Part shown: positions 10,601 to 53,559 of the stretch, in pieces
Position numbering within the stretch: the first letter of the stretch is position 1
Layout of the letters: the number at the start of each line of letters is the position of its first letter
Virus record (IMG/VR): IMGVR_UViG_3300020469_003502
Span: 1-53,797 of that record
Reading direction: 5' to 3' (one strand)
Origin: a virus
Lineage: Duplodnaviria; Caudoviricetes
DNA: 53,797 nt
The notes under the pieces: model-generated
Database searches by the model: none
Seen by the model: only the letters and a program-made list of their open reading frames with translations
Told to the model about the DNA's origin: nothing
Made by a program: the position numbers and the translations under genes

Positions 10601-11273
10601 CATGCAATATGATAGAATCAGTGACATAAACAACCTAATAGATCCAGCAGTAACAAATATTGTAGACACTTATGTATTGCTTAACAGCTACGACAGTGAC
10701 TTTAGAACTTGGGCAAACTATGATGGAAGAAGTGAAACAAAACCTACTCCGCCAACTATTAGTGAACTTACAAATCTGTTTACTAGTTTAGAAACTAAAA
10801 AAGCAATTAGTGATCAGGTAATTTACAGACCTGTAAAATATAAAATACTATTTGGCGATTTAGCTAGTAGTGAACTACAGGCTAGATTCAATGTAACTAA
10901 AACTTCAAATAGTACACTCAGTGATACAGAAATAAAGCAAAAAGTAATTGCACTTATTACTGATTATTTTAATATAAACAATTGGGACTTTGGTGAGGAC
11001 TTTTATTTTACAGAAATGGCGGCTTACATACACAATAACCTAGTAGGTGAAATAAGTCAAATAACAATTCAACCAGTTGGCAGTGAAACTGCGGTAAGAG
11101 ACTTGTTTGAAATAACAAGCTTCGGTGACGAGCTGTTTCTACCAGTAGTTAAATCTAATAACATAGTTGTTGCAAACAGCGTAACAGGCAACAGTACAAC
11201 CATTGCAGAAAGTGCAAGTGTTAGTGTAACAGGCGGTGGAAGTAGTTCTGGTAGTTCGGGGAGCAGTTACTAA
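7689..11273 (+). CDS. gp6: Baseplate wedge subunit gp6-like
   Basis: YDYETIR...ENYLSTAERRDS...LGY, IVFGDGNFGNIP, ESITSIKANAP...QDRMVTADDY motifs. Confidence 0.85.
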   Translation: MAQGARQSSLFAAEDFSVVYESFSEANFQAYDYETIRNAMVDYINKNYPENYNDWINSSEFVSLIELMAFLGHNLAFRADLASRENYLSTAERRDSALRIAEFLGYTPTRNVVASGYLKIDSVKTNENVFDAGGQSLANTSVQFDDSSDPNSYQNFLTIMNAIFQSSSQFGSPYSKFSTSGASNEIYRTNSIANIAVRNFQNLVNNKSTSFSFHSVKANTASQVLEEKTPDPYGVIDLLYRNDNSGNTSSNTGFFVGFKQGSLEYQDFTIDEGISNIVLDINSDNVASGNVWVQTIDEVGTVQKSWTRVDKQFGANTIFNARSNNIRDVYTIASRENDQISIVFGDGNFGNIPRGIIRVWYRTGLNLTYTLQPSSFNNTNLIVEYVGSDGNNYNATFICSLKSNVTNASERESITSIKANAPRYFSTQDRMVTADDYSIFPVTVSENISKIKSVNRVHSGHSRFRDIYDPTATYNDATQYTDDAYVYENNVTNRSLISMPSTLTGAQIYDLHIKPLLSNPELKNFYYNRQGYTSTGYNSQSDFNNTTDGITVVNSTLNDETNVFRWNQVTKGANGCSGYFTYNTGGTVYVQRVGLTQTNSLKKASLNSLVEFISTPFKTGYISAITRVAGGSGYTSAPTVTISGSGTGATATAVVQSGAVDHIVVNNSGSGYDENTIVTISGGGGSSATATITVLDAPTQWVKIDRLYKDGIGDDDSAGAPTGLDNAGKGAVVLSGIINAGARVNRIVPVINTDLDKTTKADVVSKINAQNSFALRYDANAQLWKVIETSNIPANTIANNVATQWSRQYEADNSATGRDNSWLIRLNYSSTQWEVLTRRTQMVFGSTQKLKFGNLNFNETFSSETQKPQRDCLKVLSMNKTTDTNATPLGKDYKFNVFGYFTYQDGYTDPHNVRVTVADPENSDYPTDPESFNKVLAGQTIKLGTKTVDGFDYTVYDSNGTTTVNGKANLHMQYDRISDINNLIDPAVTNIVDTYVLLNSYDSDFRTWANYDGRSETKPTPPTISELTNLFTSLETKKAISDQVIYRPVKYKILFGDLASSELQARFNVTKTSNSTLSDTEIKQKVIALITDYFNINNWDFGEDFYFTEMAAYIHNNLVGEISQITIQPVGSETAVRDLFEITSFGDELFLPVVKSNNIVVANSVTGNSTTIAESASVSVTGGGSSSGSSGSSY

Positions 11274-14200
11274 TGAGCGAACGCAAATCAAATCCTAGTG
11301 TAGCACCACTAATTACAACTCCTGGTGCAAGTAAAAAATTTACTGGTACAAGAGATATTACTGGTTTACTACCTAACGTATTTCAAACAGAAGTTAATAA
11401 ACAATTCTTAGATTCTACATTAGAACAGTTGCTTTCCTCAGGAAGTCTACAACCTATTAAAAATTATGTAGGTCAAAAGTTTCTTAAAGATACAGTAAAC
11501 ACAAACTATATCGCAGACAATAGAGTAGATGACAATTATCAGTTTGTTCCTGCATTGGTTAACAAAGATGAAGCAAACAATAATGCAGTCACACAGGTAT
11601 TGCCATACAATGATTTTATCAATACACTAAAGTATAACGAAGTTGATGTAAACAATCACAATAAATTATTGGACGAAAAAGGCTATACACTTGACTTACC
11701 AATTAACTATGACATGTTTATTAACTACCATAGATACTATTGGGTATTAGATGTTCTTCCTGCTAGTAAACTACAATGTACAAGTTCATTTGATATTGAT
11801 ACTATTATTGGCGAAACTACATATACAACTCCAGTACAGAAAAATACTAGAGCATTGACATTTGAGAATGGTATGCGTGTTAAATTTGATCCACATACTA
11901 TTGATAGATTTACACAGAGTAGTGCAGTTAATACAACTTTTACAGCTACAGTAGCAAATGCTGAAACATTAAAAGTTTATAAAAATAATGTATTACAAAC
12001 ATTCATAACACATTACACATACGACAGCGTATCTGGTGTAGTTACCTTTGTTACTGCTCCAGCAGTCAATGAAGAAGTAGAAATACATACATTTTATTCT
12101 AAGAGTACAAGTGGTAATTATGCAGTAGGTGACACTTACATTGTTGATGGTGTAGGTGAACCCGGCGGAATAAAACTTACAAAGCAATTCACAAGTGGTC
12201 AAATAGAAGGCAGTTACGGTGATAGAACTTGGATAAATCATACAGTTTATAGTAGTCAAGAGCCTAGCGAATTTGACAGCGACAGGTTTGCTTTTGATAA
12301 AAGACCATTTGATTTACAAGAATATAAAATGACTACAAGAGATTACGTAGTTGAGCAAAGATACTCAGAAGATCAAAGTGCATGGGCAAGAAGTAATCTT
12401 TGGGTGCATGAACAAACTATTGCCAACAGTTTGATATACGACGGCTATGCAAACGTACAAGATAATGTTTATGCAATAGACAAATACAGAGCAGTTAGAC
12501 CAATTATTGAATACAAAGCCAGTATAGAAAAATATAACTTTGGTAAAAAACATATTGCAAATGTAACTTTTTTGATTGAAGATAATACAATCGACCCTAC
12601 TACAGCAATTGTAGGTCAAACAGCATATGATTGGAACATAAGTGGTATTAGTACTGCATGGACTCAAGGAGTCGGAGGTTCAGCAGTAGGTGATCAATAC
12701 TATGTTGACCTAGGAACTTCTCCTAATACAAAGCGTACTTATTGGCAGTGTATTAAAAATCATCCTACTGCAAGAAATCCTATTCATGGCGAGAATCATG
12801 AATATTGGAAACAAATAACGCCACAAGAACTTGAGAATGGTGATACTATTTTATTTTTGAGAAATACTAATGCAAACTACAATGAAAGAATATTCAGAGT
12901 TGGTGGTGTAGGTAGTTCTATTACACTAACAGAAATTTATGGTGCTAGCAGTACAGCAATTAGTACTAACGATAAAGTTGTTATTATAAATGGATTCAAT
13001 ACTACAAAATTCGACGATGGTGAAGAAGCAAAACCATTTGGCGGCAGTGAATGGTATTATAATGGCACTACTTGGGTTTATGGACAACAAAAAACACACA
13101 GAAGTGCAGGTATGCTTGTAGAGCTTTATGATTTAGATGGTGTGTTACTTAGTAATACAACAAAATATCCTGAGAATAATTTTACTGGTGCATGTATATT
13201 TGACTATGTACACAATGATTCTAACCCAATGGACGAAGCATTAGGTTTCAGTCCCAGCTATGCTGATTATGGAAATAGTCCAGGTCTAAATTTTAGCATG
13301 CCATTTTTAAGCACTAGACTTACATATACAAGAGTTAGTAGTGATGGATTACGCAGTCTCAATCAAGAGATACAAGGGGCATACTACTATAAAGATTTGT
13401 CTGGAGTTGCATACAATGGCTGGAGTATACTAAGAAATGGACAGCCTGTCAAGAGAACAATTAGTAAAACAGTTACAACTGAAAACAGTACTCAATCAAT
13501 GATTTTTAATTTAGGTTATACAGATTTTGCAACAGACAGACATATCACAATGTTCAAGCGTAACACATATATAGATGTTAAAACGCAAAAAGATACAAGT
13601 CTAACAAACAATATTAACGATGTCAATGGTAGACTTCCTGAATTGTTTTTTGCAACAAACACAACCTACAATATAACAACACAGTTCAATCAAGCAGACG
13701 TTGAATTTGTAAATATGGACGGTACTGCAATTGGTAGTGGATTGACACGTACAGCAGGAAGTGGAAATAACTTTACAATAGTAGTTGCTTCTCCAACTGT
13801 AAATGCAATCAAGTATAGACTATCTGCACTTCCTAATAGTTTTGGTGTAATTTATTTTAATACTATTGCAAATGATACTAATATTAAAGTATATAAAAAT
13901 AGAGAAGAAACAGATAATTATACACTGAGCAATAATATATTGACAATAAATGGCGGACTAGCAGTAGATGATATTTACGAAGTAGAGTATCATACACACA
14001 ACGCTTATAGTGATTCAGCTGAAGGATTTCAACAAGCTAGCGACACACACTTGTTTAATCCACAAAACAATAGTTTTACAAATATTACATTTGGTGATTT
14101 GATAGAACATATGCGTCAACAAATGACTGGCATTCCTGGGTTTAATGGTAGTTTCTTTGGAATCAACAATTATAGAAGTATTCCGCATGTACATGAATTT

Positions 14201-17200
14201 GGTGGAACAATTAGACAACAGCCATACAGTACTGAATTACTAAACCAATTACTTATGGATACAGATACAAACTTGTATGCCAGTATCAAACATGCAAGCA
14301 GTCACTATAGTATGTTCTTAAAGAAGTTTGCTACAAAAGCAATACAAATACACAAATCATTGGATATCACAAAAAGCACATATCAAATGGTTGACAAGAT
14401 TTTACAAGAAATGAATCTTGGCAAAAACAAAGACATGCAATTTGCACAAAGTGACATGGCAATGTACAGAGATTTTGAAAGCAAAGACTATAGTTTTCAA
14501 ACAACAATGACAAAAGTTTTTGATTTGCCACAAAGTGTTAACACCTATGACGATACAGAAAATCATGTGCAGGTTTGGGTGCAAGATGATGACGGCGCTG
14601 GTAACTTACGTTGGAGATCATTGGTAAAAGATATAGATTATACACTAGCAAGTAATAAAGTAACTATCACAGGTTTAGTAACATACCCTTCTAGTGGAGT
14701 AGCTAAAACACATATTAGGTGGTATAAGAGAGATAGTGTTAGCTTTGTTCCAAACAGTGCAGTAAAGCTAGGACTAATACGACCTTACACACCTGAATTG
14801 AGATCAGACTACAGCGTTGATAGCAACGGTACAGCTACAACTAATGTAATTGTTAGACATGACGGTAGTATACATGTTCGTAACGGAACAGAAATTTATG
14901 ATAGAAGCAGAGTAGGTTATGATCCAGTTGATGCCGCTATATTTGATTTAGAGTGTAGAATATACAATAATCTAAATGCAACATTGGATAACATAGACAA
15001 TATTAAAACATATATGCCTAATGCAAATAGAGCAAATAGATACACATGGACACAAATACAAAATAGTGTTGTAAGTGAATTTAACAAATGGAAAGTAGAA
15101 AAAAACTATACTGATTTACAAAGTTCAACTTATTATGATGGCAGTGACAAGTTTACTTGGAACTATAGCAGTGTAGGTCCTGGTATTGGAGGTTGGAGAG
15201 GACTATACATTTACCACTTCAATACAGATAGACCACATACTCATCCATGGGAAATGTTAGGACATAACAAAAAGCCAACATGGTGGGATACAAACTACAG
15301 TTGGACAAACGCTACAAAACGTACCGCATTGATAACAGCATTAAGATTTGGTAAAGTAAACGACCCAAGCGTTGATAACAACTTTGATATTAACTACAAT
15401 TATGATAATTATGATTGGGCTAACAATACATTGGTTACTAATGCTGGTGTGCTAAACGATCCAGACACAGCTAATGTTGTTGCTACACCAAGTGCGGCAA
15501 ATAGACAAAAAGATTTTGTATACGGCGACTGGGGTCCAGTAGAAGCAGAATGGAGACGTAGTCCAGAATATAAGATAGCTGAATTTTTATCTTTGGCAAA
15601 AACTAGACCATTAATTGCTGTAAACAACTATTTCAAAGTTAACGAAAGATCAACAAGAGATTTTAGTTCATCAGACAAGCCTCAGATTTACAGCACCAAC
15701 AGTAACAAACTTGACAACTTTAAAAACACTGGCGTGAGTGGTGTACTACAAACTGGTAAAATTATTGAAAGTGTTATAGTTAAAGATGGCGGCACAGGTT
15801 ATACCAGTGCTCCAACTATTGTAATTAATGATAACTTCGGTAGTGGTGCAATACTTACAGCATTTGTACAAGGCGGTAGTGTAGTAAGTGTTAGTGTTGC
15901 AAACGCTGGTAAAGATTACTACAATAATCCTAAGTTAACACTAAGCACAGGATCAGCAGTATTAGAAACAGTGCTTGCTGAATCTCCAAAAAGATACTTT
16001 GCTGGTTTACAAAATGCTGTAGTAGAGTATGCAAAATCATTGAGTACTAGTAGCAAAACAATTCAAACAAGAATGAAGAGTATGGATTACAATCCAATAG
16101 TTAAAGCAGGTGGATTTGTAAACAACAATCAAAAGTTTATGTTAGAAAGTAGCCAAGACAAAGGCAGAGTATTTGTGCCTGAAGAAAACTTTACAACAAT
16201 TTTATTCAATAGTAAACCAACTGCTGAATATTTCATTAGTGGAATTAAGATTGATAAAGTAGAATCAGGTTATAAAATAAATGGTTATGATAACGACAAG
16301 ATGTACTTTGAATACTTTGAACCAAACACAGCAAGTTCTTCTATAAAGCAAACATTTTCAGTTGATATATTCAGATACAGCGAATATAACACAACAAAAT
16401 CTATACTTAATTATAACACAATTTTTACAACAATACAAGAAGTATATAGTTTTATTTTAGGCTACGGTGAATGTCTAGCACAACAAGGCTTTACACAAAA
16501 CTGGAGAGGCAGTGCAACTAACTTTGTAAATTATGCTTTAGCTTCAGCAACAGATACACTTTATCTAATACCTGATAACAGTAAAATTATTGTTAGTGAC
16601 GGAGCAGATGGATACTTTGATAATTTAGAGTCAAAGTATGATGGTATATTCAATATTAACAATAAACTAGGACAGCGGATACAAAGCACTGATTTAATAA
16701 TTGATAGAAATTTAATGATACCCAACAGCGACACAGTGTTTAAGGTAAAACAATCAACTACACAAATATATGGACTAAGACTGTACAAGACCAGTGTTGA
16801 ACATTTAATTGTATTTGACAATACAACAAATTTCGATGATACAATTTATGATGCAAGTATTGGACAAAGACACAAACGCATACAGTGGAATGGAAGTAGA
16901 ACAAAAGACTGGAACGGAAAGTTTTATAGTCCTGGATTTATTATCAACAACAACAGTATCATTCCAAACTTTGATACAGTAGCTGAACAAACAGATCAAT
17001 ATTTGGGTAGAACTAAATCACTTACAAACAATCAAATAAGTGATGTTGCTAGATTTAATATTGGATACAATCAACCCACGTGGGCTAAAGATTTGGATCT
17101 TGATGACGATACACTTTTTGAATTTGTAAAAGGAACTTACAAGTACAAAGGTACAAAATATGCACTAGATGCATTTCTAAAAAACAAAGGGTTATTTGAC

Positions 17201-20200
17201 GGAGATAGTGTAGGAGAACTGTATGAAGAATGGGCAGTGCGTATGGGTGATTTTGGAGACACTCGTAGCAGAGATACACTAGAGTTTGAACTTACACCAG
17301 ACTTGTTAATTACAAGTCCACAGCCTGTAAGATTTTTTAACACACAAAAATATGATGTGCTAACAGACACTACAATTGATATTGACACAAAAAGTCCATT
17401 GTTAGTAACAGGTACACCAGGAGATTACTTTGATACTAGAGCAGTAAAAACATATACCGAAGCAGGCATTACACAAGAAGATGCGTTTGCAAATGACTAT
17501 GTGAGTGCAGGATTACCGTTGCTAACTGAAGCAGATTTTAAAGTTTTAAACAGAGAAGGCATGTTGTCTTTTCCAGATGTAATTAATAGCGAATATGACT
17601 TTACAGGCGATTGGCAAAAACCAACTCCTTGGGAAACTAATATAAGTTACAAGTTTAACGATCAAATTATGCACAATGGTAGCACATGGGAAATGGTAGA
17701 TCCAAAAGGATATTCAGGATTAACTAGTGCTAATCAACCCATTGAGGTAGTTGGTACAGTTAGTTTGCCTATAGTACCTGCAAGTGGAGGTACATTAATA
17801 TTAGATGGCAACACAATTAGTCTTACTAAAAGTGCAACACAAACAACACTTAATGTTATAAACAAAATAGGCACACAAGATATTGCCACTAGCAATGTAG
17901 TTACACACGGAAGTACGCTAGTATTAGGTTCAACTAGTGCTTTGAGTAGTACAATAACTTTTGCAAACAGTGTAAACAATGTTACATACAACAATATAAC
18001 CAAAGACGGAACAACAAGCAATCCTAGCTTTACAGGCAGTGCAACCAAAACATTAATCATTGATGGTAACACAATTACATTCGATGACACAGTCAGCACA
18101 ACAAACAATATCACTGCACAAACAGCATTAGAAAATGCTTTTAATGCAAACGGATTTAGTAGTGTTGCTACGCTGGCTACTAATAGAATAAATGCAATTG
18201 AATCATTGAGACTGGGTTATGTAAGTGCAAATAGTGCAAGTGCATGGACAACTTTTATGACAGACTATTTCAATCCAAGTAATGCTGGTATTGACTTAAC
18301 ACTTTTATTGAATGCATACAACACAAATCCAGCATATAAAACACAGCTGGGTTCACTGATAACCAGCGATGTAGCATTAATAAATGCTAAAACTGGAAAT
18401 AGTTATGTAGCGTCAGCAGTACTAAGTGGATCAACTGTAATTCCAAGCAGTGATATTACTGCTACACAAAATGCCGTTGATAACGGTACACACATGGCGG
18501 CACTAGCAACTTGGATTAAAGCTAATCCAACAGTTGTATTTGCAACAACTACAGTTGTTACAACAATAAGTGGAACTACATTTAAAACTTATACACTAGC
18601 AGATATAGTCAACAAGATTACAGCCGCAGGAATTGCTAACATTACTGCAAGTGCAAGCAGTAATTTTTTAAGATTAGTTAAAACAACTAGTACACCTACT
18701 GTAGCGTTTAACCTTGTAATTAGTGCAGGCACCGCAAACAGTGATGTGGGCTTTAGCAGTGTTACAGAAACTATTGCGGCAACAAGCAGTGTTACAGTAA
18801 CTACCCCAAATCTAACTATTGCACAAGTTGTACAACAAATTAATAATGCTGGTATATCAAATATTTCAGCAGTTATCAATAGTGCAAATACCAATTTACT
18901 GCAAATTAATTGTAATGCAAGTTCATTGTTTGTAGGCAGTGGTACTGCAAACAGTATTGTAGGGTTAACACAAGGTGTGACCCCAGCTGGTACTACTACA
19001 ACAACATCAAATATTGCACCGGATATAAATGATATTATTGACTCAATTAATACAGCAACCATCAGTGGTGTAACAGCAAGTAACAGCAACAATAGATTAA
19101 AGTTAACCAGTAACAATGCAATACTTGTTATAGGCGCCGGAACTAGCAATGCTAATGTAGGTCTGTCAGCACAAACTTATACAGCGTCAATCAGCACAGT
19201 TAGTAATGTGTTCAATGCTATCGTAAGTGGCGTTGAAGTGTTTAAAGAAATGACAAATGATCCTAATGTTTTTAGTATTTGGGTTGCAGACGACAGTGAG
19301 TTTGGTAGTTATAACAAAGGTTATCAAGTTTATCAAACCATGGATTTTGGAATGTATATTAGCAATGCATGTGCCGGACCAACAAATGCTGATGACGCAG
19401 AGGTTACAGTAGCACGTTCACCAAGCACGGCTACACAAGCACACAATTTGGTCTCAGGTGACTATGTATTAATTAGAGGTAGTACAACTACACCAAGCAT
19501 AGACGGAATACACAAAGTTACCACTGTAGACCTTGGTAATACAGCAAAGTTTTTCATTGATGAATATATTGAATCAGAAGGAAAACTTGGAAACATTTAC
19601 CCACTACGTCCTGTTAGATTTAACAGCAAGGCTGAACTAGATACTGTATATAATTCAAAAGTAAACGGAATATACAAATATAATTTCAACGGAGTAAGAC
19701 AGAATAACAGTTTGAATAAGATTAACATATTTGTAGATGATGATGGTTATGACAAGAGTGCAGTATACACTTGGGCAGGTGACTATACTGATGCAAACGG
19801 ACACCACAATGGTAGCTTTACCCAAGCTCGTGTAGGACAAGCACAGACAACACCTTCGACTAATTTACAAGTAAAATTATACGATGCTAGTGCAAGAACT
19901 AGTATTGCTAATTTAGAGATATGGGATCCTGCAAAAGGTATTATATTTGGCTTTATAGACAAAGAGATTGATTATAAACTAGTAAATGATATTGGTAGCT
20001 ACAACTTCAATACTCTCAACGGAGAGATGACCAACATAAATGCTTGGAAAGATGAATATGTTGGAGTGCGTTGGTGGGATTTAAGCACCGCTGTTTACCT
20101 TGATTACGAACAAAGCATTATCGAATACCAGCAAACAAACTGGGGAAGACTATTTCCAGGTGCAAGTATAGATGTATACGAATGGACAAGATCCACAGTG

Positions 20201-22543
20201 CTACCTGAATTTTGGGATCAAGCTGTTGAAGATGGAACAGTAATTGACGGACAAGAAGCAAGCGGAGAAGCATACTTTACAATAATTAATAATGAAAAAG
20301 TATACAATTGGACACAGCAAAATTATTATAATCCAAAAACAAGACGTGACGAAGTTGTATATTACTTCTGGGTTAAGAATAAACTTAACTATAGCGGTAT
20401 TAGACAATATAATGTAAGTCAGATTTCACAGATACTTAAGAATCCAAGTGCATTTAATATTGCCTGGGCGGCACCTTCATTGTCTAATCAGCTATTGTTA
20501 AACAATATAAGCAACTTCGTAACAAAAAATACTGTAGTACAAGTAACCAAAAACTATACTAATACAAACAGTATGCCATTAAATGATTGGACACTGCTAG
20601 GCGAAGATGATCCTAATTGTTACATTCCAGAATACTTGCATATTAAAATGCGTGATAGTTTAGCTGGTTTTAATAATCATACAGTTGATGCAACTTACTC
20701 AACTTGGAATAATAGCACAAGTTACTTGGTAAATGCTGTAGTAGAACGAAACGGCAAATACTACATAAGTCGACAATCATCTAATCAAAACTATGATCCA
20801 TTATTAGATTCAGCAATGACATATTGGCAACAAATTTATGATTACACATTTGATAATACCACACAAGTAGATGATATTAAAATTTGGAGAGGTCAACACC
20901 TACCAGACTATAACTTACATCCATACAATAGATACGGACATCTAGTTAGACCAAGACAAAGTTTGTTTAGAGATTTACCTGAAGCAAGACAAAATTTTGT
21001 ATACACAGTAAATGACTTACTAGGCGAAGTTAATTTAATTGACGAAGTAGTAAATTGGAAAAACTGTTTCCACGCTACATTCACAAAAGGTAACGTAACA
21101 TATAATATTAAAGATTATGTAACACTAGTTGACTGGTATCTAGTAGAAAAAGATGCAGACGGAAATGTAACATACGAATTTAATCCAAATACTATAGCAG
21201 ATTTTACTTTTGATAGTGACACAGAACGTTTAGATTTTACAGGTAACATTCCAGATGGTAGTTATATATTAATCAAGTACAATCAAGGCAACGATGGATT
21301 AAACAGACAAAGAATGCTTTTTGTAACAGGCGGATTAGACAAACTAGTAAGTATGGAGAAAGCCACAGTTAAGCTCAGTGAAGAACTTTGGTTAGAAAGC
21401 AAGTTCGGACACGGTTTTGATGCAGGCGGATTTGGTATACTTCCATATGACAGTGGAGCAAATGATGTAATAGGCAAACTAATGGATCTATTACGCAGTG
21501 AAATTTTTGTACATAGACACAAGGTAATGTATAATAAAATGTGGTTTAAATTATTATACGGTGCAATTTTACAAAACACAACGGATGATTTTGCTTTCAA
21601 AACCAGTTATGTAAAATTAAAAGTAAAACACCCACTGCTAACAAATAAAACAACATATCAGAGATATCCAATAAGTGTTGTGGAAGATTACTTTAATAGC
21701 ATCAAGCCATTCCATACAAAGCTATTAGATCTCACTGAAAGCAACACACACATAGAAGCAACTATGGCAGAAATTGACGAAGTGTCCAGACAGACTGCTA
21801 TTACTATGATATACAATGACCATACTGAGTGTGCTTGGAATGGTGATGAGATACTAGAAGGTGGACTGTTTACAACTGATATGGAAACTACTGCTAGTAA
21901 TATTGACCAAAGCGGGTTTACTACACTGGATTCAAGTTATGATAATATTGCAGATGGTGATATATTTGCTAATCCACGATATCAATACTGTGACGGTGAA
22001 TTATACAAAACTGATTTTACAGAAAATATTGCAATTGCTGTACAAACAAATGCAAGTGGAAATAGCTTGACATCTGACAGTAGAGCATATAGAATGAGTA
22101 CATACATGCCAAATAACATTCAAGTGAGTAATGTTATTGTGGATGCAAACAAAACAACTACCACAGCCGCAGTAACTGGTTTAGATACAACTATTCCCGT
22201 AGCAGATGCAACTAAACTAGATAATCCAAGTACAGTAATTGGTGTAGGCGAAATACCTGGAGTTGTTTATATAGGAAGTGAACGAATAGAATACCGTGCA
22301 GTAAGTGGAAATAACTTGCTATTTTGCACAAGAGGTACACTAGGTACTAGTGGAAAAGCACATGCTAGTGGTGCAACTGTAGTAAACAGTGGCGAAACTA
22401 CACGTATTCCAATACTGGAAAAGTTCTCTGATTACGGAGATAACTTACGAACAGCATACAATGACAGTGGTACAAGTTTAAGTGCCACAGGAATCTCACC
22501 TGAACACGCATTTATTCGAAATGCAGGGCAAGGATCGATATAA
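11273..22543 (+). CDS. Giant (3756 aa) multidomain virion structural protein, probably gp7-equivalent baseplate wedge / fibre platform
   Basis: Uninterrupted ORF after gp6. N-terminal LLPNVFQTEVNKQFL, YKGTKYALD and IKPFHTKL resemble gp7/P2-gpI motifs; contains many beta repeats. Confidence 0.7.
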   Translation: MSERKSNPSVAPLITTPGASKKFTGTRDITGLLPNVFQTEVNKQFLDSTLEQLLSSGSLQPIKNYVGQKFLKDTVNTNYIADNRVDDNYQFVPALVNKDEANNNAVTQVLPYNDFINTLKYNEVDVNNHNKLLDEKGYTLDLPINYDMFINYHRYYWVLDVLPASKLQCTSSFDIDTIIGETTYTTPVQKNTRALTFENGMRVKFDPHTIDRFTQSSAVNTTFTATVANAETLKVYKNNVLQTFITHYTYDSVSGVVTFVTAPAVNEEVEIHTFYSKSTSGNYAVGDTYIVDGVGEPGGIKLTKQFTSGQIEGSYGDRTWINHTVYSSQEPSEFDSDRFAFDKRPFDLQEYKMTTRDYVVEQRYSEDQSAWARSNLWVHEQTIANSLIYDGYANVQDNVYAIDKYRAVRPIIEYKASIEKYNFGKKHIANVTFLIEDNTIDPTTAIVGQTAYDWNISGISTAWTQGVGGSAVGDQYYVDLGTSPNTKRTYWQCIKNHPTARNPIHGENHEYWKQITPQELENGDTILFLRNTNANYNERIFRVGGVGSSITLTEIYGASSTAISTNDKVVIINGFNTTKFDDGEEAKPFGGSEWYYNGTTWVYGQQKTHRSAGMLVELYDLDGVLLSNTTKYPENNFTGACIFDYVHNDSNPMDEALGFSPSYADYGNSPGLNFSMPFLSTRLTYTRVSSDGLRSLNQEIQGAYYYKDLSGVAYNGWSILRNGQPVKRTISKTVTTENSTQSMIFNLGYTDFATDRHITMFKRNTYIDVKTQKDTSLTNNINDVNGRLPELFFATNTTYNITTQFNQADVEFVNMDGTAIGSGLTRTAGSGNNFTIVVASPTVNAIKYRLSALPNSFGVIYFNTIANDTNIKVYKNREETDNYTLSNNILTINGGLAVDDIYEVEYHTHNAYSDSAEGFQQASDTHLFNPQNNSFTNITFGDLIEHMRQQMTGIPGFNGSFFGINNYRSIPHVHEFGGTIRQQPYSTELLNQLLMDTDTNLYASIKHASSHYSMFLKKFATKAIQIHKSLDITKSTYQMVDKILQEMNLGKNKDMQFAQSDMAMYRDFESKDYSFQTTMTKVFDLPQSVNTYDDTENHVQVWVQDDDGAGNLRWRSLVKDIDYTLASNKVTITGLVTYPSSGVAKTHIRWYKRDSVSFVPNSAVKLGLIRPYTPELRSDYSVDSNGTATTNVIVRHDGSIHVRNGTEIYDRSRVGYDPVDAAIFDLECRIYNNLNATLDNIDNIKTYMPNANRANRYTWTQIQNSVVSEFNKWKVEKNYTDLQSSTYYDGSDKFTWNYSSVGPGIGGWRGLYIYHFNTDRPHTHPWEMLGHNKKPTWWDTNYSWTNATKRTALITALRFGKVNDPSVDNNFDINYNYDNYDWANNTLVTNAGVLNDPDTANVVATPSAANRQKDFVYGDWGPVEAEWRRSPEYKIAEFLSLAKTRPLIAVNNYFKVNERSTRDFSSSDKPQIYSTNSNKLDNFKNTGVSGVLQTGKIIESVIVKDGGTGYTSAPTIVINDNFGSGAILTAFVQGGSVVSVSVANAGKDYYNNPKLTLSTGSAVLETVLAESPKRYFAGLQNAVVEYAKSLSTSSKTIQTRMKSMDYNPIVKAGGFVNNNQKFMLESSQDKGRVFVPEENFTTILFNSKPTAEYFISGIKIDKVESGYKINGYDNDKMYFEYFEPNTASSSIKQTFSVDIFRYSEYNTTKSILNYNTIFTTIQEVYSFILGYGECLAQQGFTQNWRGSATNFVNYALASATDTLYLIPDNSKIIVSDGADGYFDNLESKYDGIFNINNKLGQRIQSTDLIIDRNLMIPNSDTVFKVKQSTTQIYGLRLYKTSVEHLIVFDNTTNFDDTIYDASIGQRHKRIQWNGSRTKDWNGKFYSPGFIINNNSIIPNFDTVAEQTDQYLGRTKSLTNNQISDVARFNIGYNQPTWAKDLDLDDDTLFEFVKGTYKYKGTKYALDAFLKNKGLFDGDSVGELYEEWAVRMGDFGDTRSRDTLEFELTPDLLITSPQPVRFFNTQKYDVLTDTTIDIDTKSPLLVTGTPGDYFDTRAVKTYTEAGITQEDAFANDYVSAGLPLLTEADFKVLNREGMLSFPDVINSEYDFTGDWQKPTPWETNISYKFNDQIMHNGSTWEMVDPKGYSGLTSANQPIEVVGTVSLPIVPASGGTLILDGNTISLTKSATQTTLNVINKIGTQDIATSNVVTHGSTLVLGSTSALSSTITFANSVNNVTYNNITKDGTTSNPSFTGSATKTLIIDGNTITFDDTVSTTNNITAQTALENAFNANGFSSVATLATNRINAIESLRLGYVSANSASAWTTFMTDYFNPSNAGIDLTLLLNAYNTNPAYKTQLGSLITSDVALINAKTGNSYVASAVLSGSTVIPSSDITATQNAVDNGTHMAALATWIKANPTVVFATTTVVTTISGTTFKTYTLADIVNKITAAGIANITASASSNFLRLVKTTSTPTVAFNLVISAGTANSDVGFSSVTETIAATSSVTVTTPNLTIAQVVQQINNAGISNISAVINSANTNLLQINCNASSLFVGSGTANSIVGLTQGVTPAGTTTTTSNIAPDINDIIDSINTATISGVTASNSNNRLKLTSNNAILVIGAGTSNANVGLSAQTYTASISTVSNVFNAIVSGVEVFKEMTNDPNVFSIWVADDSEFGSYNKGYQVYQTMDFGMYISNACAGPTNADDAEVTVARSPSTATQAHNLVSGDYVLIRGSTTTPSIDGIHKVTTVDLGNTAKFFIDEYIESEGKLGNIYPLRPVRFNSKAELDTVYNSKVNGIYKYNFNGVRQNNSLNKINIFVDDDGYDKSAVYTWAGDYTDANGHHNGSFTQARVGQAQTTPSTNLQVKLYDASARTSIANLEIWDPAKGIIFGFIDKEIDYKLVNDIGSYNFNTLNGEMTNINAWKDEYVGVRWWDLSTAVYLDYEQSIIEYQQTNWGRLFPGASIDVYEWTRSTVLPEFWDQAVEDGTVIDGQEASGEAYFTIINNEKVYNWTQQNYYNPKTRRDEVVYYFWVKNKLNYSGIRQYNVSQISQILKNPSAFNIAWAAPSLSNQLLLNNISNFVTKNTVVQVTKNYTNTNSMPLNDWTLLGEDDPNCYIPEYLHIKMRDSLAGFNNHTVDATYSTWNNSTSYLVNAVVERNGKYYISRQSSNQNYDPLLDSAMTYWQQIYDYTFDNTTQVDDIKIWRGQHLPDYNLHPYNRYGHLVRPRQSLFRDLPEARQNFVYTVNDLLGEVNLIDEVVNWKNCFHATFTKGNVTYNIKDYVTLVDWYLVEKDADGNVTYEFNPNTIADFTFDSDTERLDFTGNIPDGSYILIKYNQGNDGLNRQRMLFVTGGLDKLVSMEKATVKLSEELWLESKFGHGFDAGGFGILPYDSGANDVIGKLMDLLRSEIFVHRHKVMYNKMWFKLLYGAILQNTTDDFAFKTSYVKLKVKHPLLTNKTTYQRYPISVVEDYFNSIKPFHTKLLDLTESNTHIEATMAEIDEVSRQTAITMIYNDHTECAWNGDEILEGGLFTTDMETTASNIDQSGFTTLDSSYDNIADGDIFANPRYQYCDGELYKTDFTENIAIAVQTNASGNSLTSDSRAYRMSTYMPNNIQVSNVIVDANKTTTTAAVTGLDTTIPVADATKLDNPSTVIGVGEIPGVVYIGSERIEYRAVSGNNLLFCTRGTLGTSGKAHASGATVVNSGETTRIPILEKFSDYGDNLRTAYNDSGTSLSATGISPEHAFIRNAGQGSI

Positions 22544-34030: not shown

Positions 34031-34578
34031 AAAAGTTATTACACATACCAAACTGTTGGCATGAACAAATTGCAAACGCATACGATTTAGAATTAGTAAC
34101 AGATAATCCTGATATTATTATACTACGTGATCCTTTTGATAGAGCTGTAGAAGCTACAGTAGATTTGTTGGACAGCGGAGGTGAAACCAATGGTTTGACA
34201 TTTGAAGAATTATTGTTTCAAGACAACAATATATATTCAAAAGCATTGAGAATCACAACTGGAACAGCAGATGAGCTGAAACAGAAAATGTTCGAGTTTG
34301 TTTGGTTAAGCAGTTATATCGTTTGGCCTAGAATAACAGGTGAACTGCACCCCAAGGAGCAGACCAAACCACTTGAAAGATTTAATTTGACCAGCACAAG
34401 TAAAAAATTAAGTGATTATCTTTCTGTGCCACATCAGCAGTTAAATGTCAATCAAAGATTTACTAGTAGTGATTTAGGTACAGCTCTACGTGGAGACTTT
34501 CAACTTGCTAACAGTATGGATTATGATCTCGTAAGAAAATTAAAAATATACACAGACAAAGGAAGATACTATGAGTAA
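34027..34578 (+). CDS. Degenerate sulfotransferase-like protein
   Basis: LLHIP, ILRDPFDR and NSMDYDL remnants; the KTGGT loop is absent. Confidence 0.5.
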   Translation: MKKLLHIPNCWHEQIANAYDLELVTDNPDIIILRDPFDRAVEATVDLLDSGGETNGLTFEELLFQDNNIYSKALRITTGTADELKQKMFEFVWLSSYIVWPRITGELHPKEQTKPLERFNLTSTSKKLSDYLSVPHQQLNVNQRFTSSDLGTALRGDFQLANSMDYDLVRKLKIYTDKGRYYE

Positions 34579-35401
34579 TGTTATTGTTTTCCCACATTGT
34601 CCTAAAACTGGCGGAACCACGCTTAAAGAACGCTACAGCAATCAAAACGAATCGTTTGCAATAACAGATTTAAATCACAATGTCAATAATAAAACCAAAG
34701 TGATATTTGGACATAATGTAAAAATTGGATATTACGAAAACGTTCTCAAAAATAACTGTGTATACATCACATGTTTACGCAATCCTGTAAGCAGAATAAT
34801 GAGCATGTATAACTTTTATAGAACACAAATCCTTTATATGAATCCAGATAGTCCAGACATTGACTTCTATCTTTGGTTCATAAACAAAGATGTTATTAGA
34901 CCTATGTCTGTAGTCAAACAGTACGAATACTTTTTATATCAGCATGCTGATCATGTAAGCTGGTTTGAAGATAAAACACTAGCAGATCCTTTTCGTTCGA
35001 ATGATATGTATCTCAATAGTGTACTATCCTGGGACGTTGAAGCAGATAAAAGTTCTGTAGACAACAATAAATTAGAAGACCGTATAAAACACAAACAACA
35101 AGTTGAACAACAGAATATGAATGTAACTTGGGATAGAGTAGTAAATAATTTTGACCATGTATTTTTTCAACATGAAGATATTGTTGATATCTTTGATAAC
35201 CTATTAGTAAAGTATGACATACAAATGCAAGTATGGAAAGAAATGATCATAACCAACGAAACAAAACATGATTTAGAAAAACATAATTTAGAATATGTAA
35301 ACTTTTACAACTTAGACGACGACTTAAAGTATCTTGTTGAGCTTGATCTAAAAGCTGATATTGACTTTTACAATAGATGCGAGGAAAAATGGAAACGCTA
35401 G
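34571..35401 (+). CDS. PAPS-dependent sulfotransferase (family 2)
   Basis: 5'-PSB HCPKTGGTT, 3'-PB LRNPVSRIMSMY, C-terminal DIDFY. Confidence 0.85.
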   Translation: MSNVIVFPHCPKTGGTTLKERYSNQNESFAITDLNHNVNNKTKVIFGHNVKIGYYENVLKNNCVYITCLRNPVSRIMSMYNFYRTQILYMNPDSPDIDFYLWFINKDVIRPMSVVKQYEYFLYQHADHVSWFEDKTLADPFRSNDMYLNSVLSWDVEADKSSVDNNKLEDRIKHKQQVEQQNMNVTWDRVVNNFDHVFFQHEDIVDIFDNLLVKYDIQMQVWKEMIITNETKHDLEKHNLEYVNFYNLDDDLKYLVELDLKADIDFYNRCEEKWKR

Positions 35402-36135
35402 CAGTATTTCATATACTTAAAAACGGAGGTACAACTCTAGTAGATAGATACAAGCATAATGATAATTTTGTTTATCAGCGTATTCCTAGTGAAATCATAT
35501 ACAATTATCAAAGTATCACACAGCAAAGTTATCATGTTAACATGTGTGATCGTGCAACACCCAGTGTAATATTTGGACACGGTGTTACATTTGCATGGGA
35601 TAAACTCTTGCAAAATCCTGTAAAGTATGCTACTATACTAAGAGATCCAATAAAACGTATGATGAGTGCGTATAATTATTTTAGATTAGAAATGATTAAC
35701 GTACACAATCATGCATCTAATATTGATTTTGTTACGTGGCTTATAAATTGTGATAGAATGTTACCAACTCCTACATTTGCACAATATCAACAGTTTAGTA
35801 CACAAGTTTCTTTGAGAGAAGATTATGGAAGACACATTGACGGAGAATTAGAATATGAACTATACAGTACTGCTATTGAAAACGTTCAACGGCTAGACCA
35901 CATACTTTTTATAGAGGATAATTATATAGAGAAGTTCGACAAAGTAGCTAAAACATATGATGTAACACCAGATGATGCTGTAACACATCAACACGATACA
36001 GTAGTTCAGTTGCGTGAACGAAAAGAACAGTATGTCAAGTACAGTGACTTAGACGTAGTTGCACAAGACTTACTGTTACAAACTGTACAAAGAGATCAAC
36101 AGTTTTACGATTATTGCAAGGAAGAATTTGCATGA
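35389..36135 (+). CDS. PAPS-dependent sulfotransferase (family 2)
   Basis: FHILKNGGTT, LRDPIKRMMSAY, DQQFY. GAGG RBS before ATG 35389. Confidence 0.85.
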   Translation: METLAVFHILKNGGTTLVDRYKHNDNFVYQRIPSEIIYNYQSITQQSYHVNMCDRATPSVIFGHGVTFAWDKLLQNPVKYATILRDPIKRMMSAYNYFRLEMINVHNHASNIDFVTWLINCDRMLPTPTFAQYQQFSTQVSLREDYGRHIDGELEYELYSTAIENVQRLDHILFIEDNYIEKFDKVAKTYDVTPDDAVTHQHDTVVQLRERKEQYVKYSDLDVVAQDLLLQTVQRDQQFYDYCKEEFA

Positions 36136-44043: not shown

Positions 44044-44558
44044 AAATACTAGTGCTTGCAAATACAACTGAATGGCTAGAACGTTTGCCCAAAGAACATG
44101 AATACGGTGTTTACACAATTGCTTATGGAAACTACTTGAACTATTATGAGCTCTTGACATGGTTACGAATTCATAATATAATTAAACAGTACGAGTATAT
44201 ACTAGTAGAGTCATCATCAACACCAAATTTATGTTTCTATAAACGTACTTGGGTTAATAATTTAATACGTTCACAGAAGGATAATTTTGAATATTGCAGT
44301 GCTGACATTAATTTTTTAGTATGGTCAACAGATGTATTTGATACTGCTCAAGGTGATCAAATACAACATAAGTATGACATGCAATTGACCAGACCACAAA
44401 TAGACTATCTACAAAAATTAGTTGTAAATAATTCAATCGATGCAATAATGAAAGGTAGTCAAATTAGGTTAGAGAGATATTTAAAAAGATTGAACATAGA
44501 ATATAATTTAATAACGGATGTAAACAATGAAAATATTAATATTTGGTCTGCCAGGTAG
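44040..44558 (+). CDS. Hypothetical protein
   Basis: ATGA-coupled ORF; no clear motif. Confidence 0.55.
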   Translation: MKILVLANTTEWLERLPKEHEYGVYTIAYGNYLNYYELLTWLRIHNIIKQYEYILVESSSTPNLCFYKRTWVNNLIRSQKDNFEYCSADINFLVWSTDVFDTAQGDQIQHKYDMQLTRPQIDYLQKLVVNNSIDAIMKGSQIRLERYLKRLNIEYNLITDVNNENINIWSAR

Positions 44559-44952
44559 TGGTAAAACTACACTAGCAAAACCATTTGCAGAACTAATCGG
44601 CGGTATACACATTAATGCTGATACAATAAGAAAAAAATATGACGATTGGGACTTTAGTCCTGATGGACGTATTAGACAAGCACAACGTATGCGACACTTG
44701 GCTGATGGAGTAGAGATGGCTGGCAAAATTGCAGTTGCTGACTTTGTGTGCCCCACCGAACAAGCACGTAAAGAATTTGCACCCGACTATACAGTTTGGA
44801 TGGATACAATTAATGCAGGTAGATTTGCCGACACAAATGCTATATTTGAAAATCCTCCAAACTGCGATTATCATGTAGGCAAATGGTTTACAGATACACC
44901 AGCACAATTAATGCCAGTAGTACAACGTTGGATGGAGAAAAATAATGTTTGA
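44527..44952 (+). CDS. cysC: Adenylylsulfate (APS) kinase-like protein
   Basis: GLPGSGKTT P-loop, NADTIR, DFSPDGRIRQ, DFVCP, FENP. Confidence 0.75.
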   Translation: MKILIFGLPGSGKTTLAKPFAELIGGIHINADTIRKKYDDWDFSPDGRIRQAQRMRHLADGVEMAGKIAVADFVCPTEQARKEFAPDYTVWMDTINAGRFADTNAIFENPPNCDYHVGKWFTDTPAQLMPVVQRWMEKNNV

Positions 44953-45334
44953 TTGGAAGAAACCCACTGCACAAATGCTTGGACGTTGGCAACCTTGGCA
45001 TGATGGACATACTGAATTGTTCAAACGCATACTAGCAGAACACGGACAAGTTTGTATTATGATACGAGATGTATGTGGTGCAGATGCTGGTATGGGAAAC
45101 ACAGACAACCCGTTTGATTATCGTACAGTAAAGAAAAATATCATAGCAGGGTTGGAAGAACATGGTTATAAATGTGGTATTGAATATGAAGTTTTAAGTG
45201 TTCCTAATATTGTAGACATCAGCTATGGCAGAGGTGTAGGATACACATTTACTGAGCATGACTTGGATAAAGATATTCAAGCTATAAGTGCGACAAAGAT
45301 TCGTGCTGAAATGAGAGCTAAAGGCGAACTATGA
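44945..45334 (+). CDS. Small HxGH nucleotidyltransferase (cytidyltransferase-like)
   Basis: GRWQPWHDGH, YGRGVGY, ISATKIR. Confidence 0.8.
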   Translation: MFDWKKPTAQMLGRWQPWHDGHTELFKRILAEHGQVCIMIRDVCGADAGMGNTDNPFDYRTVKKNIIAGLEEHGYKCGIEYEVLSVPNIVDISYGRGVGYTFTEHDLDKDIQAISATKIRAEMRAKGEL

Positions 45335-46818
45335 TAAGTTGGGGTTGGACAGGTATGGCACATGATGCTAGTTTAGCAGTGTTTGATAACAAGCAACTGA
45401 TGTTTGCCTCTCATGCCGAACGTTACAGCAGAATAAAAAATGACAAGCATCTTAATCGTGGTATACTTATAGATGCATTGTACCATGGTGAGCCTGATGA
45501 AATATTCTTTTATGAAAGACCTTGGTTAAAGAAAACAAGACAGTTGTACGCTGGACAGTATAATTTACTTACAAAACCTTCTCCAAGAAGTGTGCTTGGT
45601 GAATTGTATACTAATCCACCACGTGTACGCACAACAACGCATCATCACAGTCATGCCGCCGGAGGTTATTTTACCAGTCCGTTTGATGATGCTGTGATAC
45701 TGTGCATAGACAGTATAGGTGAATGGGAAACAATTAGCATATGGACAGGTGAAGGTAATCAATTAAAGAAACTATGGAGTCAAAGTTATCCTAATAGTAT
45801 AGGCATATGGTACAGTGGTATGACACAGCGTATAGGCTTAAAGCCACAAGAACATGAATATATATTAATGGGTATGGCGGCTGTAGGTGATCCCAACACA
45901 TATTATGATCTAATTAAAAATGATTTTATATTAAAGATGCCCACAATGCAAGACGGTAAAACTGTATTTTTACGCAACTGTCACAGAGGTTGTATGAATT
46001 GGCAACCTTTACTAAACAGTGTACAAAATTATGCTGATATAGCCGCGGCGACTCAGCGTATATACGAAGAAATATTTCTAGGACTAATAAGACACACAGC
46101 ATACTTGACCAATGGTCGTAAAAAGAATCTGGTACTTACCGGAGGTTGTGTATTGAACTGTGTTGCAAATCCAATTGCACATACACATTTTGATAACGTA
46201 TGGATCATGCCCAATCCAGGTGATGCTGGCAGTGCAATTGGTTGTGTGCTTGCTCACAAAAGCGAACACATAGAGTGGCCCGGACCATATTTGGGACACA
46301 ATATACAAGGAGAATATCCAGTTGAAAAAGTTATACATGAACTACAAACCAACAAAATTACTGCCGTTGCGGCAGGTAGGGCTGAGTTTGGTCCTCGGGC
46401 TCTCGGCAACCGTAGTATTCTTGCTGATCCCCGCGGAGATGATGTCAAGTCGCTTGTTAACAGTATTAAACACAGAGAGTCATTCAGACCATTTGCGCCA
46501 GCAATCCTTGAAGAACATGCGTCAGATTATTTCGACGGCTTCACAGGTCCGTACATGCAATACACAGCAACGTGTAAAGACCCTGCTTCGTTTCCAGCAA
46601 TCATCCACTACGATGACACAAGCAGAGTTCAGACAGTATCTAAAGACAATAATACAGGATTCAGAAAACTGCTAGAACGTTGGTATGAACTAACAGGTTG
46701 TCCCATGCTATTGAATACAAGTTTAAACATCAAAGGTGAGCCATTGGTTAATAGTTTAGCTGACGCCGAGCGTTGGAGCGAACAATACGGAGTAGAAGTT
46801 TGCACACCCTCGGTATAG
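45331..46818 (+). CDS. O-carbamoyltransferase (NodU/CmcH/TobZ family)
   Basis: HDAS, ERYSRIKND, HHHSHAA, EYILMG, GDAG, EFGPRALGNRS, RESFRPFAP, LNTSLN. Confidence 0.95.
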   Translation: MISWGWTGMAHDASLAVFDNKQLMFASHAERYSRIKNDKHLNRGILIDALYHGEPDEIFFYERPWLKKTRQLYAGQYNLLTKPSPRSVLGELYTNPPRVRTTTHHHSHAAGGYFTSPFDDAVILCIDSIGEWETISIWTGEGNQLKKLWSQSYPNSIGIWYSGMTQRIGLKPQEHEYILMGMAAVGDPNTYYDLIKNDFILKMPTMQDGKTVFLRNCHRGCMNWQPLLNSVQNYADIAAATQRIYEEIFLGLIRHTAYLTNGRKKNLVLTGGCVLNCVANPIAHTHFDNVWIMPNPGDAGSAIGCVLAHKSEHIEWPGPYLGHNIQGEYPVEKVIHELQTNKITAVAAGRAEFGPRALGNRSILADPRGDDVKSLVNSIKHRESFRPFAPAILEEHASDYFDGFTGPYMQYTATCKDPASFPAIIHYDDTSRVQTVSKDNNTGFRKLLERWYELTGCPMLLNTSLNIKGEPLVNSLADAERWSEQYGVEVCTPSV

Positions 46819-52884: not shown

Positions 52885-53559
52885 ATGTTATTTGAAAACT
52901 CACAAGATAATTGGGAGATTGATCTCCCGGAGAATATGAAAACCCTGGGATTGAAAATCAGTGGAGGTGCTGACAGTGCAATAGTTTGTTACATGGTTGC
53001 GAAGTATGTAACTGAAGAAAGACCTGACATAACCATTCATCCCATTACTGCGGTAGCAAGTACCAAACCATTTCAACAGATATTTGCAGACAAAGTATTA
53101 CGCAAAGTAGAATCACTAACAGGCATTGAATTTGCACCGCACCAATATAGGACAATTGATAGTACTACAGTTGAAAACTATATCAATCAACAAGCAGATC
53201 TTGTCAATGATGTTTATGCAAGTCAAGGCTTGCAAAAGCATTTCTCTGGTTTAACTGCTAATCCAACAGCTGAAGACGCTCCTGAACTTTATGATGGTAC
53301 GCATGCACTACCTGGCAGTTTTGGTCCAAATGATACTGACAGGAGTAAAGGTATAGAAAAGAAATCCAATACATTTAGACCTTTAATAAATGTTGACAAA
53401 AAAGGTGTTGCTGAACACTACGTTAGATTGAGTGTATTAGAAGAACTATTTCCATTGACCCGTAGTTGTGAAAAAGATAACGTGTATACATTTGAAGAAC
53501 ACTGCGGAGACTGTTGGTTTTGTAGAGAACGCAAATGGGGATTCGGAAGATTAATATAA
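52885..53559 (+). CDS. QueC-like PP-loop ATP pyrophosphatase with Zn motif
   Basis: ISGGADS PP-loop, RPLINVDK, TRSC...HCGDCWFCRER. Confidence 0.75.
   Translation: MLFENSQDNWEIDLPENMKTLGLKISGGADSAIVCYMVAKYVTEERPDITIHPITAVASTKPFQQIFADKVLRKVESLTGIEFAPHQYRTIDSTTVENYINQQADLVNDVYASQGLQKHFSGLTANPTAEDAPELYDGTHALPGSFGPNDTDRSKGIEKKSNTFRPLINVDKKGVAEHYVRLSVLEELFPLTRSCEKDNVYTFEEHCGDCWFCRERKWGFGRLI

Follow-up and report, generated by a model that had tools for sequence, protein, structure and literature searches.

An APS-kinase-like protein and a reduced NadM-type transferase form a phage and bacterial gene pair that may supply PAPS

What does a very small nucleotidyltransferase do when a phage carries it coupled to a protein that resembles an APS (adenosine 5'-phosphosulfate) kinase? 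We followed this question in a 53.8-kb fragment of an IMG/VR virus record (IMGVR_UViG_3300020469_003502; CheckV completeness estimate 10%), all 53,797 nucleotides of which are called the window here. Two consecutive genes of the window encode a P-loop kinase and a nucleotidyltransferase with an HxGH motif (Table 1). The original prediction took them for a possible minimal synthase of PAPS (3'-phosphoadenosine 5'-phosphosulfate) that feeds the phage sulfotransferases, with the HxGH protein as a stripped-down ATP sulfurylase. We find that the functional side of this idea gains support from the APS-kinase-like partner, from fusion of the two proteins, from cellular neighbourhoods with aprMBA, TauE, cysQ and YeiH genes, and from genomes in which Sat and CysD were not found. 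The proposed ancestry did not hold. Judged by its sequence, the HxGH protein falls outside the Sat family: its homologues are NadM and other nicotinamide mononucleotide (NMN) adenylyltransferases (NMNATs), and it is a shortened transferase of the NadM type. We read the pair as a non-canonical sulfate adenylyltransferase plus an APS kinase, a phage-carried module for PAPS supply, and give this reading a probability of about 0.5.

The kinase is APS-kinase-like by sequence and by fold. It matches the Pfam family APS_kinase (PF01583) with 31.3 bits (cut-off 21.1), over profile positions 5-91 of 152 only, and scores equally against AAA_33 (31.9 bits). A weak match to AAA_28 was also recorded (E 0.0024), and the score against the APS kinase equivalog TIGR00455, 22.5 bits, lies below the cut-off of 138.7. 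When its AF2 model (pLDDT 92.2) was compared with the PDB by Foldseek, the listed matches down to rank 34 were all APS kinases (best E 2.3e-8), and the first other fold, a gluconate kinase, stood at rank 37. TMq was 0.72-0.86 across all APS kinases among the matches listed. An alignment of 31 sequences shows D32, R35 and R48 without exception and F43 at 90% conservation or more; all four are unchanged in a canonical SAR11 CysC, and all align to 2yvu. The D-x-x-R, F and R that follow the P-loop are, we assume, the APS-contacting residues of solved APS kinases. The lid is not full length, being about 17 residues shorter than that of this canonical SAR11 CysC.

The HxGH protein matches no Pfam family at E<=0.01. 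Its family profile found archaeal NMNAT 1f9a (E 1e-10) and NadM 2qjt (E 8.5e-9) in the PDB, mainly through the N-terminal half: positions 17-75 are aligned, and after them only 99-129. The alignment breaks off after VPNI and resumes at the GY strand and the ISAT helix. With 129 aa against 168-181 aa in NMNATs, the protein is some 30-50 residues shorter and lacks a stretch of about 30. This stretch, from strand 3 to the GY strand, presumably forms the NMN pocket of NMNATs. Scores against the NCBIfam models are under the cut-offs (PRK01153, 25.7 bits against 127; TIGR01527, 20.0 against 181.2). In the AF2 model (pLDDT 88.2) three strands are clear and residues 87-108 have no regular structure. 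The best VIA Z scores of the model are to NadM (10.9), PPAT (10.1) and NMNAT (10.0), followed by 8.8 for the Thermus ATP sulfurylase 1v47 (118 residues aligned, rmsd 3.3), 8.2 for NadR, 6.5-7.2 for 2b7l, 5x3d and 3glv, and 6.1-6.7 for other ATP sulfurylases. Foldseek, proposed at the outset for a comparison with Sat, lists ATP sulfurylase 1g8f at E 0.072; by VIA the NadM, PPAT and NMNAT folds score 10-10.9 and Sat 8.8, and the fold does not decide between them.

HxGH and ISxT...R motifs are general to the nucleotidyltransferase superfamily. Family alignments of the HxGH protein show at least 90% conservation of HxGH, of ISAT..R and of further residues; relative to NadM, extra conserved positions lie in IRD and PNI motifs (R40 and N88; D41 in the consensus only) and in YGRxVGY. 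The window protein carries GRWQPWHDGH (residues 13-22), YGRGVG (94-99) and ISATKIR (114-120), in the order that had been predicted.

The two proteins behave as one unit. A single PHROG profile, phrog_10255 (230 positions), covers both end to end, and in 76 of 80 related IMG/VR loci a kinase homologue precedes the HxGH gene on its strand, so the pairing is not a matter of chance. Of 80 genome loci, 69 likewise have a kinase upstream. Fused forms are common: among 5354 scored longer metagenomic candidates, 5261 match the HxGH protein at E<=0.001; of the 120 longer candidates listed, most are kinase-transferase fusions of 245-292 aa with PF01583 and/or PF13671 on record. The kinase part is N-terminal in the fused relatives. 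Relatives of nearly the same length as the HxGH protein number at least 8000, and a library at 50% identity holds 1077 representative clusters.

Cultured phages also carry the fusion, in 12 of 50,697 records (Xylella, Xanthomonas and Stenotrophomonas phages and one Clavibacter phage), where it sits among early and DNA-metabolism genes. It is annotated merely as "kinase" or "hypothetical" in Xylella phage Salvo and Stenotrophomonas phage DLP6. Salvo has an annotated cysteine dioxygenase about 3.5 kb upstream of the fusion; in DLP6 an Fe(II) oxygenase and a Ser/Thr phosphatase adjoin it. A nucleotide search of cultured phages with the pair region gave nothing beyond one 81-nt match. The pair is present in fourteen further phage records, of which two (328 and 342 kb) are 90% complete or more; the seven longest, these two included, gave no match to Sat or CysD. 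Since pair-carrying relatives reach 328-342 kb, the source of the window is probably a jumbo phage.

We also built a quick tree of 134 HxGH sequences, taken from 162 rows after identical trimmed sequences and trimmed domains of 100 residues or less had been dropped. Most forks are unresolved. The window groups with two viral loci (L004 and L005), the Xylella and Stenotrophomonas phage fusions lie on very long branches, and cell and virus labels need four changes. The tree gives no direction of transfer between cells and viruses.

Where the pair occurs in cells, its neighbours point to sulfur nucleotides. Carriers returned by a genome scan belong to SAR11, SAR86, other marine Alphaproteobacteria and, in a few cases, Bacteroidota. 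Of 151 Pelagibacterales genomes sampled, 122 gave a match to the HxGH protein and 124 to aprA; when the two lists were compared, 118 genomes had both (one of these, G086, is unpublished), 4 the HxGH protein only, 6 aprA only and 23 neither. The two genes are about 360 bp apart in 19 genomes and 1.4-1.8 kb apart in 4 more.

Gene order varies around this association. In one locus (L165) kinase-HxGH is convergent with orf116-aprA-aprB-aprM-like, and in two (L085, L092) it diverges from aprM, the opposite strand carrying orf116-aprA-aprB-aprM, with a cysQ-like gene beyond. Three loci (L168, L136, L146) have HxGH-aprM-like-aprB-aprA-orf116-TauE on one strand without the kinase. Five genomes with this apr-operon order or a close HxGH-aprA spacing were searched further, the order having been read in G128 (L168) and G172 (L146) and the spacing alone in G138, G116 and G089; an APS kinase above cut-off, a homologue of the SAR11 kinase and Sat were each found in 0 of the 5. 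The HxGH gene here takes the position before aprM that sat has in sat-aprMBA operons. Elsewhere the order is CysQ-kinase-HxGH (L087; CysQ by TIGR01331, 288 bits, cut-off 228.8) or, in a complete SAR86 genome (L108), a gene for a YeiH-type putative sulfate exporter followed by kinase and HxGH genes. In genomes of the main Pelagibacter clade, by contrast, the pair is flanked by a creatinase-like gene and an enoyl-CoA hydratase, with dimethylglycine-dehydrogenase-like and electron-transfer-flavoprotein (ETF) genes close by. As a separate observation, orf116 is a conserved 116-aa ORF (open reading frame) of no Pfam or NCBIfam family that comes after aprA in every apr cluster of SAR11 and Alphaproteobacteria (9 of 9 aprA-bearing loci; L168 10200-10550, L165 8019-8369, L092 5852-6202).

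Carriers rarely have the standard enzymes for making APS from sulfate: 0 of 14 carrier genomes gave CysD and 1 of 10 gave Sat. Sulfotransferase-family genes were present in 5 of 5 carriers tested, compared with 2 of 14 control genomes. Two strong sulfotransferases occur in the complete SAR86 genome G003, in which the truncated kinase was the only APS-kinase-like protein found; Sat, CysD and aprA were each not found in it. Among SAR11 genomes, Pelagibacter G002 has a canonical full-length CysC (L170, 8143-8691) within a glycan island, alongside Polysacc_synt_2, CMP-sugar-type cytidylyltransferase and PEP-utilising-enzyme genes, and neither Sat nor CysD was found in this genome.

Published accounts agree with this scarcity. 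Passages of PMC10356861 describe ATP sulfurylase as absent from most SAR11, and sections of PMC5069961 describe Ca. P. ubique as lacking sat and cysDNCHIJ. Both papers portray SAR11 as being without sat and cysDN yet keeping AprBA and a "cysC". According to PMC5069961, cysC and aprA share one distribution over seven genomes (text and Table 3) and SAR11 can form APS from sulfite via AprBA. An excerpt of PMC3448164 reports sat in HTCC9565 only. Searches of the literature outside subscription journals turned up no description of this HxGH protein as a sulfurylase.

Returning to the window, the pair is embedded in a large cluster of putative modification genes. T4-like baseplate and virion genes lie in the first 22.5 kb, and a single-strand cluster at about 23-51 kb (23180-50777) encloses the kinase and HxGH genes, which overlap as predicted, here by 8 nt (ATGTTTGA); the stop of the HxGH gene is in turn overlapped by 4 nt by the start of a carbamoyltransferase gene. 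Eight radical-SAM proteins, the majority of which have SPASM domains, are encoded in the cluster together with an FkbM methyltransferase, an aminotransferase, the NodU-type carbamoyltransferase, a glycosyltransferase, an epimerase/dehydratase, a GFO/IDH-radical-SAM fusion of 777 aa and several ORFs without a family. It may serve to modify a glycan, DNA or a small molecule. The sulfotransferases that had been placed about 10 kb upstream are two paralogous sulfotransferase-like genes, about 9 kb from the pair. Both have a PKxGGTT-type loop in the BLASTP alignment. The first, with PKTGGTT and LRNPVSR, has its PF00685 match at 34700-34900; the second has no Pfam or NCBIfam match of its own. The absence of sat and cysDN from the window was borne out in that neither Sat (PF01747, E<=0.1) nor CysD (TIGR02039, E<=0.001) was matched anywhere in it.

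Table 1. Positions in the window of the gene pair and of three further genes discussed in the text
Feature	Position	Strand	Evidence
APS-kinase-like P-loop kinase, shortened lid, 141 aa, Walker A GLPGSGKT	44527..44952	+	ORF list, Pfam, fold
HxGH nucleotidyltransferase, minimal, 129 aa; candidate non-canonical sulfate adenylyltransferase	44945..45334	+	Family profile, AF2 model, cellular context
NodU/Nol-type carbamoyltransferase	45331..46818	+	Carbam_trans_N E 6e-43, Carbam_trans_C E 2e-52; context only
Sulfotransferase-like protein 1, possible PAPS user	34571..35401 (ORF 34571-35398)	+	Sulfotransfer_1 E 6.2e-5, 22.9 bits (cut-off 22); Sulfotransfer_2 E 4.6e-4
Sulfotransferase-like protein 2, paralogue of ORF 34571-35398	35377..36135 (ORF 35377-36132)	+	BLASTP 26% identity, E 2e-23

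Four side observations concern the rest of the window and one genome locus. A single ORF of 3756 aa (11273-22543) directly follows the baseplate wedge gene. A second, unrelated cytidylyltransferase-like ORF of 194 aa (728-1312; phrog_395, E 2.7e-10) lies beside virion genes. The C-terminus of ORF 52885-53559 weakly matches a QueC-like queuosine-biosynthesis PHROG (E 1.5e-7). Finally, one 108-kb contig of a "Gammaproteobacteria" metagenome-assembled genome (MAG), L084, stands alone among the genome loci in having homologues of almost the entire window cluster (ORF 28410 to ORF 51620, 25-94% identity); it is probably a phage contig binned into the MAG.

How might such a pair work? The gene pair itself, its fusion, folds, homologies and genomic associations are observed; from these we infer both substrates, the direction in which the reaction runs and a connection with the phage sulfotransferases. 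The pair would handle APS, because the fold of the kinase, the fusion and sulfur-nucleotide contexts of five different kinds agree. The HxGH protein would be a pared-down descendant of NadM-type NMN adenylyltransferases that lost a segment kept by NMNATs, and the loss of this segment would fit a small second substrate. With a small anion in its place, the protein could catalyse ATP + sulfate <-> APS + PPi, as a functional analogue of ATP sulfurylase, and the kinase could then phosphorylate the 3'-OH of APS to give PAPS. Translational coupling here, and fusion in thousands of relatives, might pull the unfavourable first reaction forward. The phage module would thus supply PAPS in hosts of the SAR11 and SAR86 type, where Sat and CysDN were not found, and one plausible use of it would be by the two sulfotransferase-like enzymes of the adjacent modification cluster.

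Several observations weigh against this reading. At the level of the protein, the detectable homologues of the HxGH protein are NMNATs and not sulfurylases: its family profile found no ATP sulfurylase in the PDB at E<=10, and a SAR11 orthologue scores 16.7 bits against PF01747, under the cut-off of 24.3. Fold scores do not separate NadM (10.9), PPAT (10.1) and Sat (8.8). An hhalign comparison with an alignment of seven alphaproteobacterial Sat catalytic domains is weak (probability 35.6%) and leaves HxGH outside the aligned stretch. It pairs ISGT with ISAT and Sat IVGRDHAG with IMIRD (residues 38-41); thus IRD, and not the YGR of YGRGVG as had been proposed, falls on GRD, although at this low probability, and motif spacing can be argued either way. 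The Sat alignment has invariant T26, R27, N28, H31 and H34 (T-R-N-P-x-H-x-x-H), and where Sat has T-R-N the HxGH protein reads GRWQPWHDGH, a NadM-type pattern. The shortened kinase lid, in turn, may change or abolish APS kinase activity.

At the level of gene distribution, the expected link to sulfotransferases fails in phages. Co-occurrence or fusion with CysC and sulfotransferases had been named as a check, and its kinase half stood, with a CysC-like kinase adjacent in 76 of 80 viral loci. The sulfotransferase half did not: a homologue of a window sulfotransferase lies within 10 kb in just 1 of these 80 loci, and 0 of the 14 other pair-carrying phage records have a Sulfotransfer_1 match or a homologue of the window sulfotransferase. 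The usual phage neighbours of the pair are replication genes, the commonest being a helicase, a clamp-loader-like ATPase, a Toprim protein and an exoribonuclease. In cells, sulfotransferase-family genes occur in 16 of 18 SAR11 genomes with the pair and also in 9 of 18 without it, and genome G005 has Sat and the pair together. The pair occurs without aprA in three SAR86 genomes, G005 and one Bacteroidota MAG. The 23 SAR11 genomes that lack both the HxGH protein and aprA may represent one or a few clades, so that the association may rest on few events.

If the pair handles APS, the reaction could also run the other way. APS + PPi (or Pi) would then give ATP (or ADP) + sulfate and complete the AprBA sulfite oxidation or detoxification of the host; the phage copy would be an auxiliary gene for energy or detoxification, unrelated to the window sulfotransferases, and the kinase a regulatory element or side branch. 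The tight co-distribution and adjacency with aprMBA and TauE in SAR11, the kinase-less HxGH form inside the apr operon and the YeiH-type putative sulfate exporter beside the pair in SAR86 are all in line with this, as are the lack of co-occurrence with sulfotransferases in phages and the reported absence of Sat from most SAR11 (PMC10356861). However, the kinase is retained in most viral and genome loci (76 and 69 of 80), often as a fusion, which fits PAPS synthesis better. In addition, cysQ adjoins the pair in some lineages, SAR86 and G005 carry the pair without aprA, and aprA or aprB was found in 0 of 80 viral loci. We regard reversal as unlikely, though the likeliest of the alternatives.

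The local cluster raises the possibility that the pair activates some other small phospho- or phosphono-compound, by forming an adenylyl- or cytidylyl-derivative that is then 3'-phosphorylated, or with the kinase acting first, and so feeds the radical-SAM, carbamoyltransferase and glycosyltransferase functions. Translational coupling to the carbamoyltransferase, a homologue of which is nearby in 20 of 80 viral loci, would fit such a role, as would the repeated occurrence of a CMP-KDO-synthase-type gene (13 viral loci). Other HxGH enzymes, similar in size, use glycerol-3-phosphate, heptose-1-phosphate or phosphonates (VIA Z 6.5-7.2). Yet the pair is kept although most of the rest of the window cluster has homologues in just 1 of 80 viral loci, the cellular contexts indicate APS and adenosine 3',5'-bisphosphate (PAP), and the kinase fold is specifically that of APS kinases. 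These data make another substrate quite improbable.

The ancestry of the HxGH protein invites a reading in terms of NAD salvage, as in NadR: the kinase would phosphorylate nicotinamide riboside and the HxGH protein would adenylylate the NMN, giving NAD+, as a way, for instance, of replenishing NAD+ in infected cells. NMN adenylyltransferases are its only significant sequence relatives, NadM is its best fold match, and the kinase has the weak AAA_28 match noted above. Against this, the NMNAT region between the VPNI and GY strands is missing, the kinase resembles APS kinases and not nicotinamide riboside kinases, SAR11 carriers already have NadD, and the conserved cellular neighbours are sulfur-nucleotide genes with no NAD genes among them. 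We consider salvage very improbable. A related idea, that the pair replaces a missing gene for NAD, CoA or FAD synthesis, was dropped, as SAR11 carriers have NadD-, CoaD- and RibF-like genes. Least credible of all is that the kinase alone acts on APS, from AprBA or another route, while the HxGH protein regulates or scaffolds: the kinase evidence is indeed the stronger and AprBA can give SAR11 APS from sulfite (PMC5069961), but HxGH, ISAT..R and further residues are conserved as in an active enzyme, the HxGH protein stands alone with aprMBA where no kinase was found, and SAR86 G003 lacks aprA, Sat and CysD as APS sources.

We therefore return to the pair as a sulfate adenylyltransferase plus an APS kinase. 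This very common marine gene pair may be the sulfate-activating enzyme that SAR11 and SAR86 appear to lack. A bolder form of the proposal, to which we give slightly less than even odds, is that the HxGH protein adds a third class of sulfate adenylyltransferase, so far unrecognised, to Sat and CysDN, having evolved from a NadM-type NMNAT by loss of about 30 residues. It would then be the ATP sulfurylase that is "missing" from SAR11 and SAR86, working with AprBA, CysQ and the APS-kinase-like partner, and would be spread by large marine phages as an auxiliary module. SAR11 and SAR86 are among the most abundant marine bacteria, and the formation and consumption of APS in them is a gap. If the proposal is true, models of marine organosulfur and sulfite turnover and of cellular PAPS supply would change, a compact PAPS synthase of about 250 residues would exist, and large marine phages would bring their own sulfate-activation step to hosts without the standard one.

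Among known systems, the closest in logic are the bifunctional PAPS synthases (animal PAPSS1/2, and bacterial Sat-CysC such as Aquifex 2gks), which likewise join an APS-kinase fold to a transferase of the HxGH superfamily, fused or coupled. The kinase is N-terminal in animal PAPSS, a protein of about 600 aa. In contrast, the phage unit and its fused relatives comprise about 250-270 aa, with a kinase lid shorter by about 17 residues, and the transferase of 129 aa has no PUA-like domain, is related to NadM and has no Sat-family match. The closest in descent are NadM and archaeal NMNATs (1f9a, 2qjt, 1ej2), which have the GRxQPxHxGH, NPF and ISxTxIR helix in common with the HxGH protein (profile E 1e-10; Z 10-10.9). 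The HxGH protein differs from them in being about 30-50 residues shorter, without the stretch from strand 3 to the GY strand, and in its cellular context of sulfur and not NAD genes.

The closest in gene order are the sat-aprMBA clusters of sulfur oxidisers. A SAR11 sublineage likewise has a small gene before aprM-like, aprB and aprA, then TauE, but the gene found where sat would be expected did not prove to be a Sat homologue in the tests made, and elsewhere the pair occurs without aprA. Pairings of a kinase with an HxGH transferase are themselves familiar from NadR (NMNAT and RNK), CoA synthase (PPAT and DPCK), HldE and RibF. These follow the same kinase-transferase logic, but their kinases are not of the APS-kinase type. 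What would be new here is the logic of a PAPS synthase built from a different branch of the HxGH superfamily.

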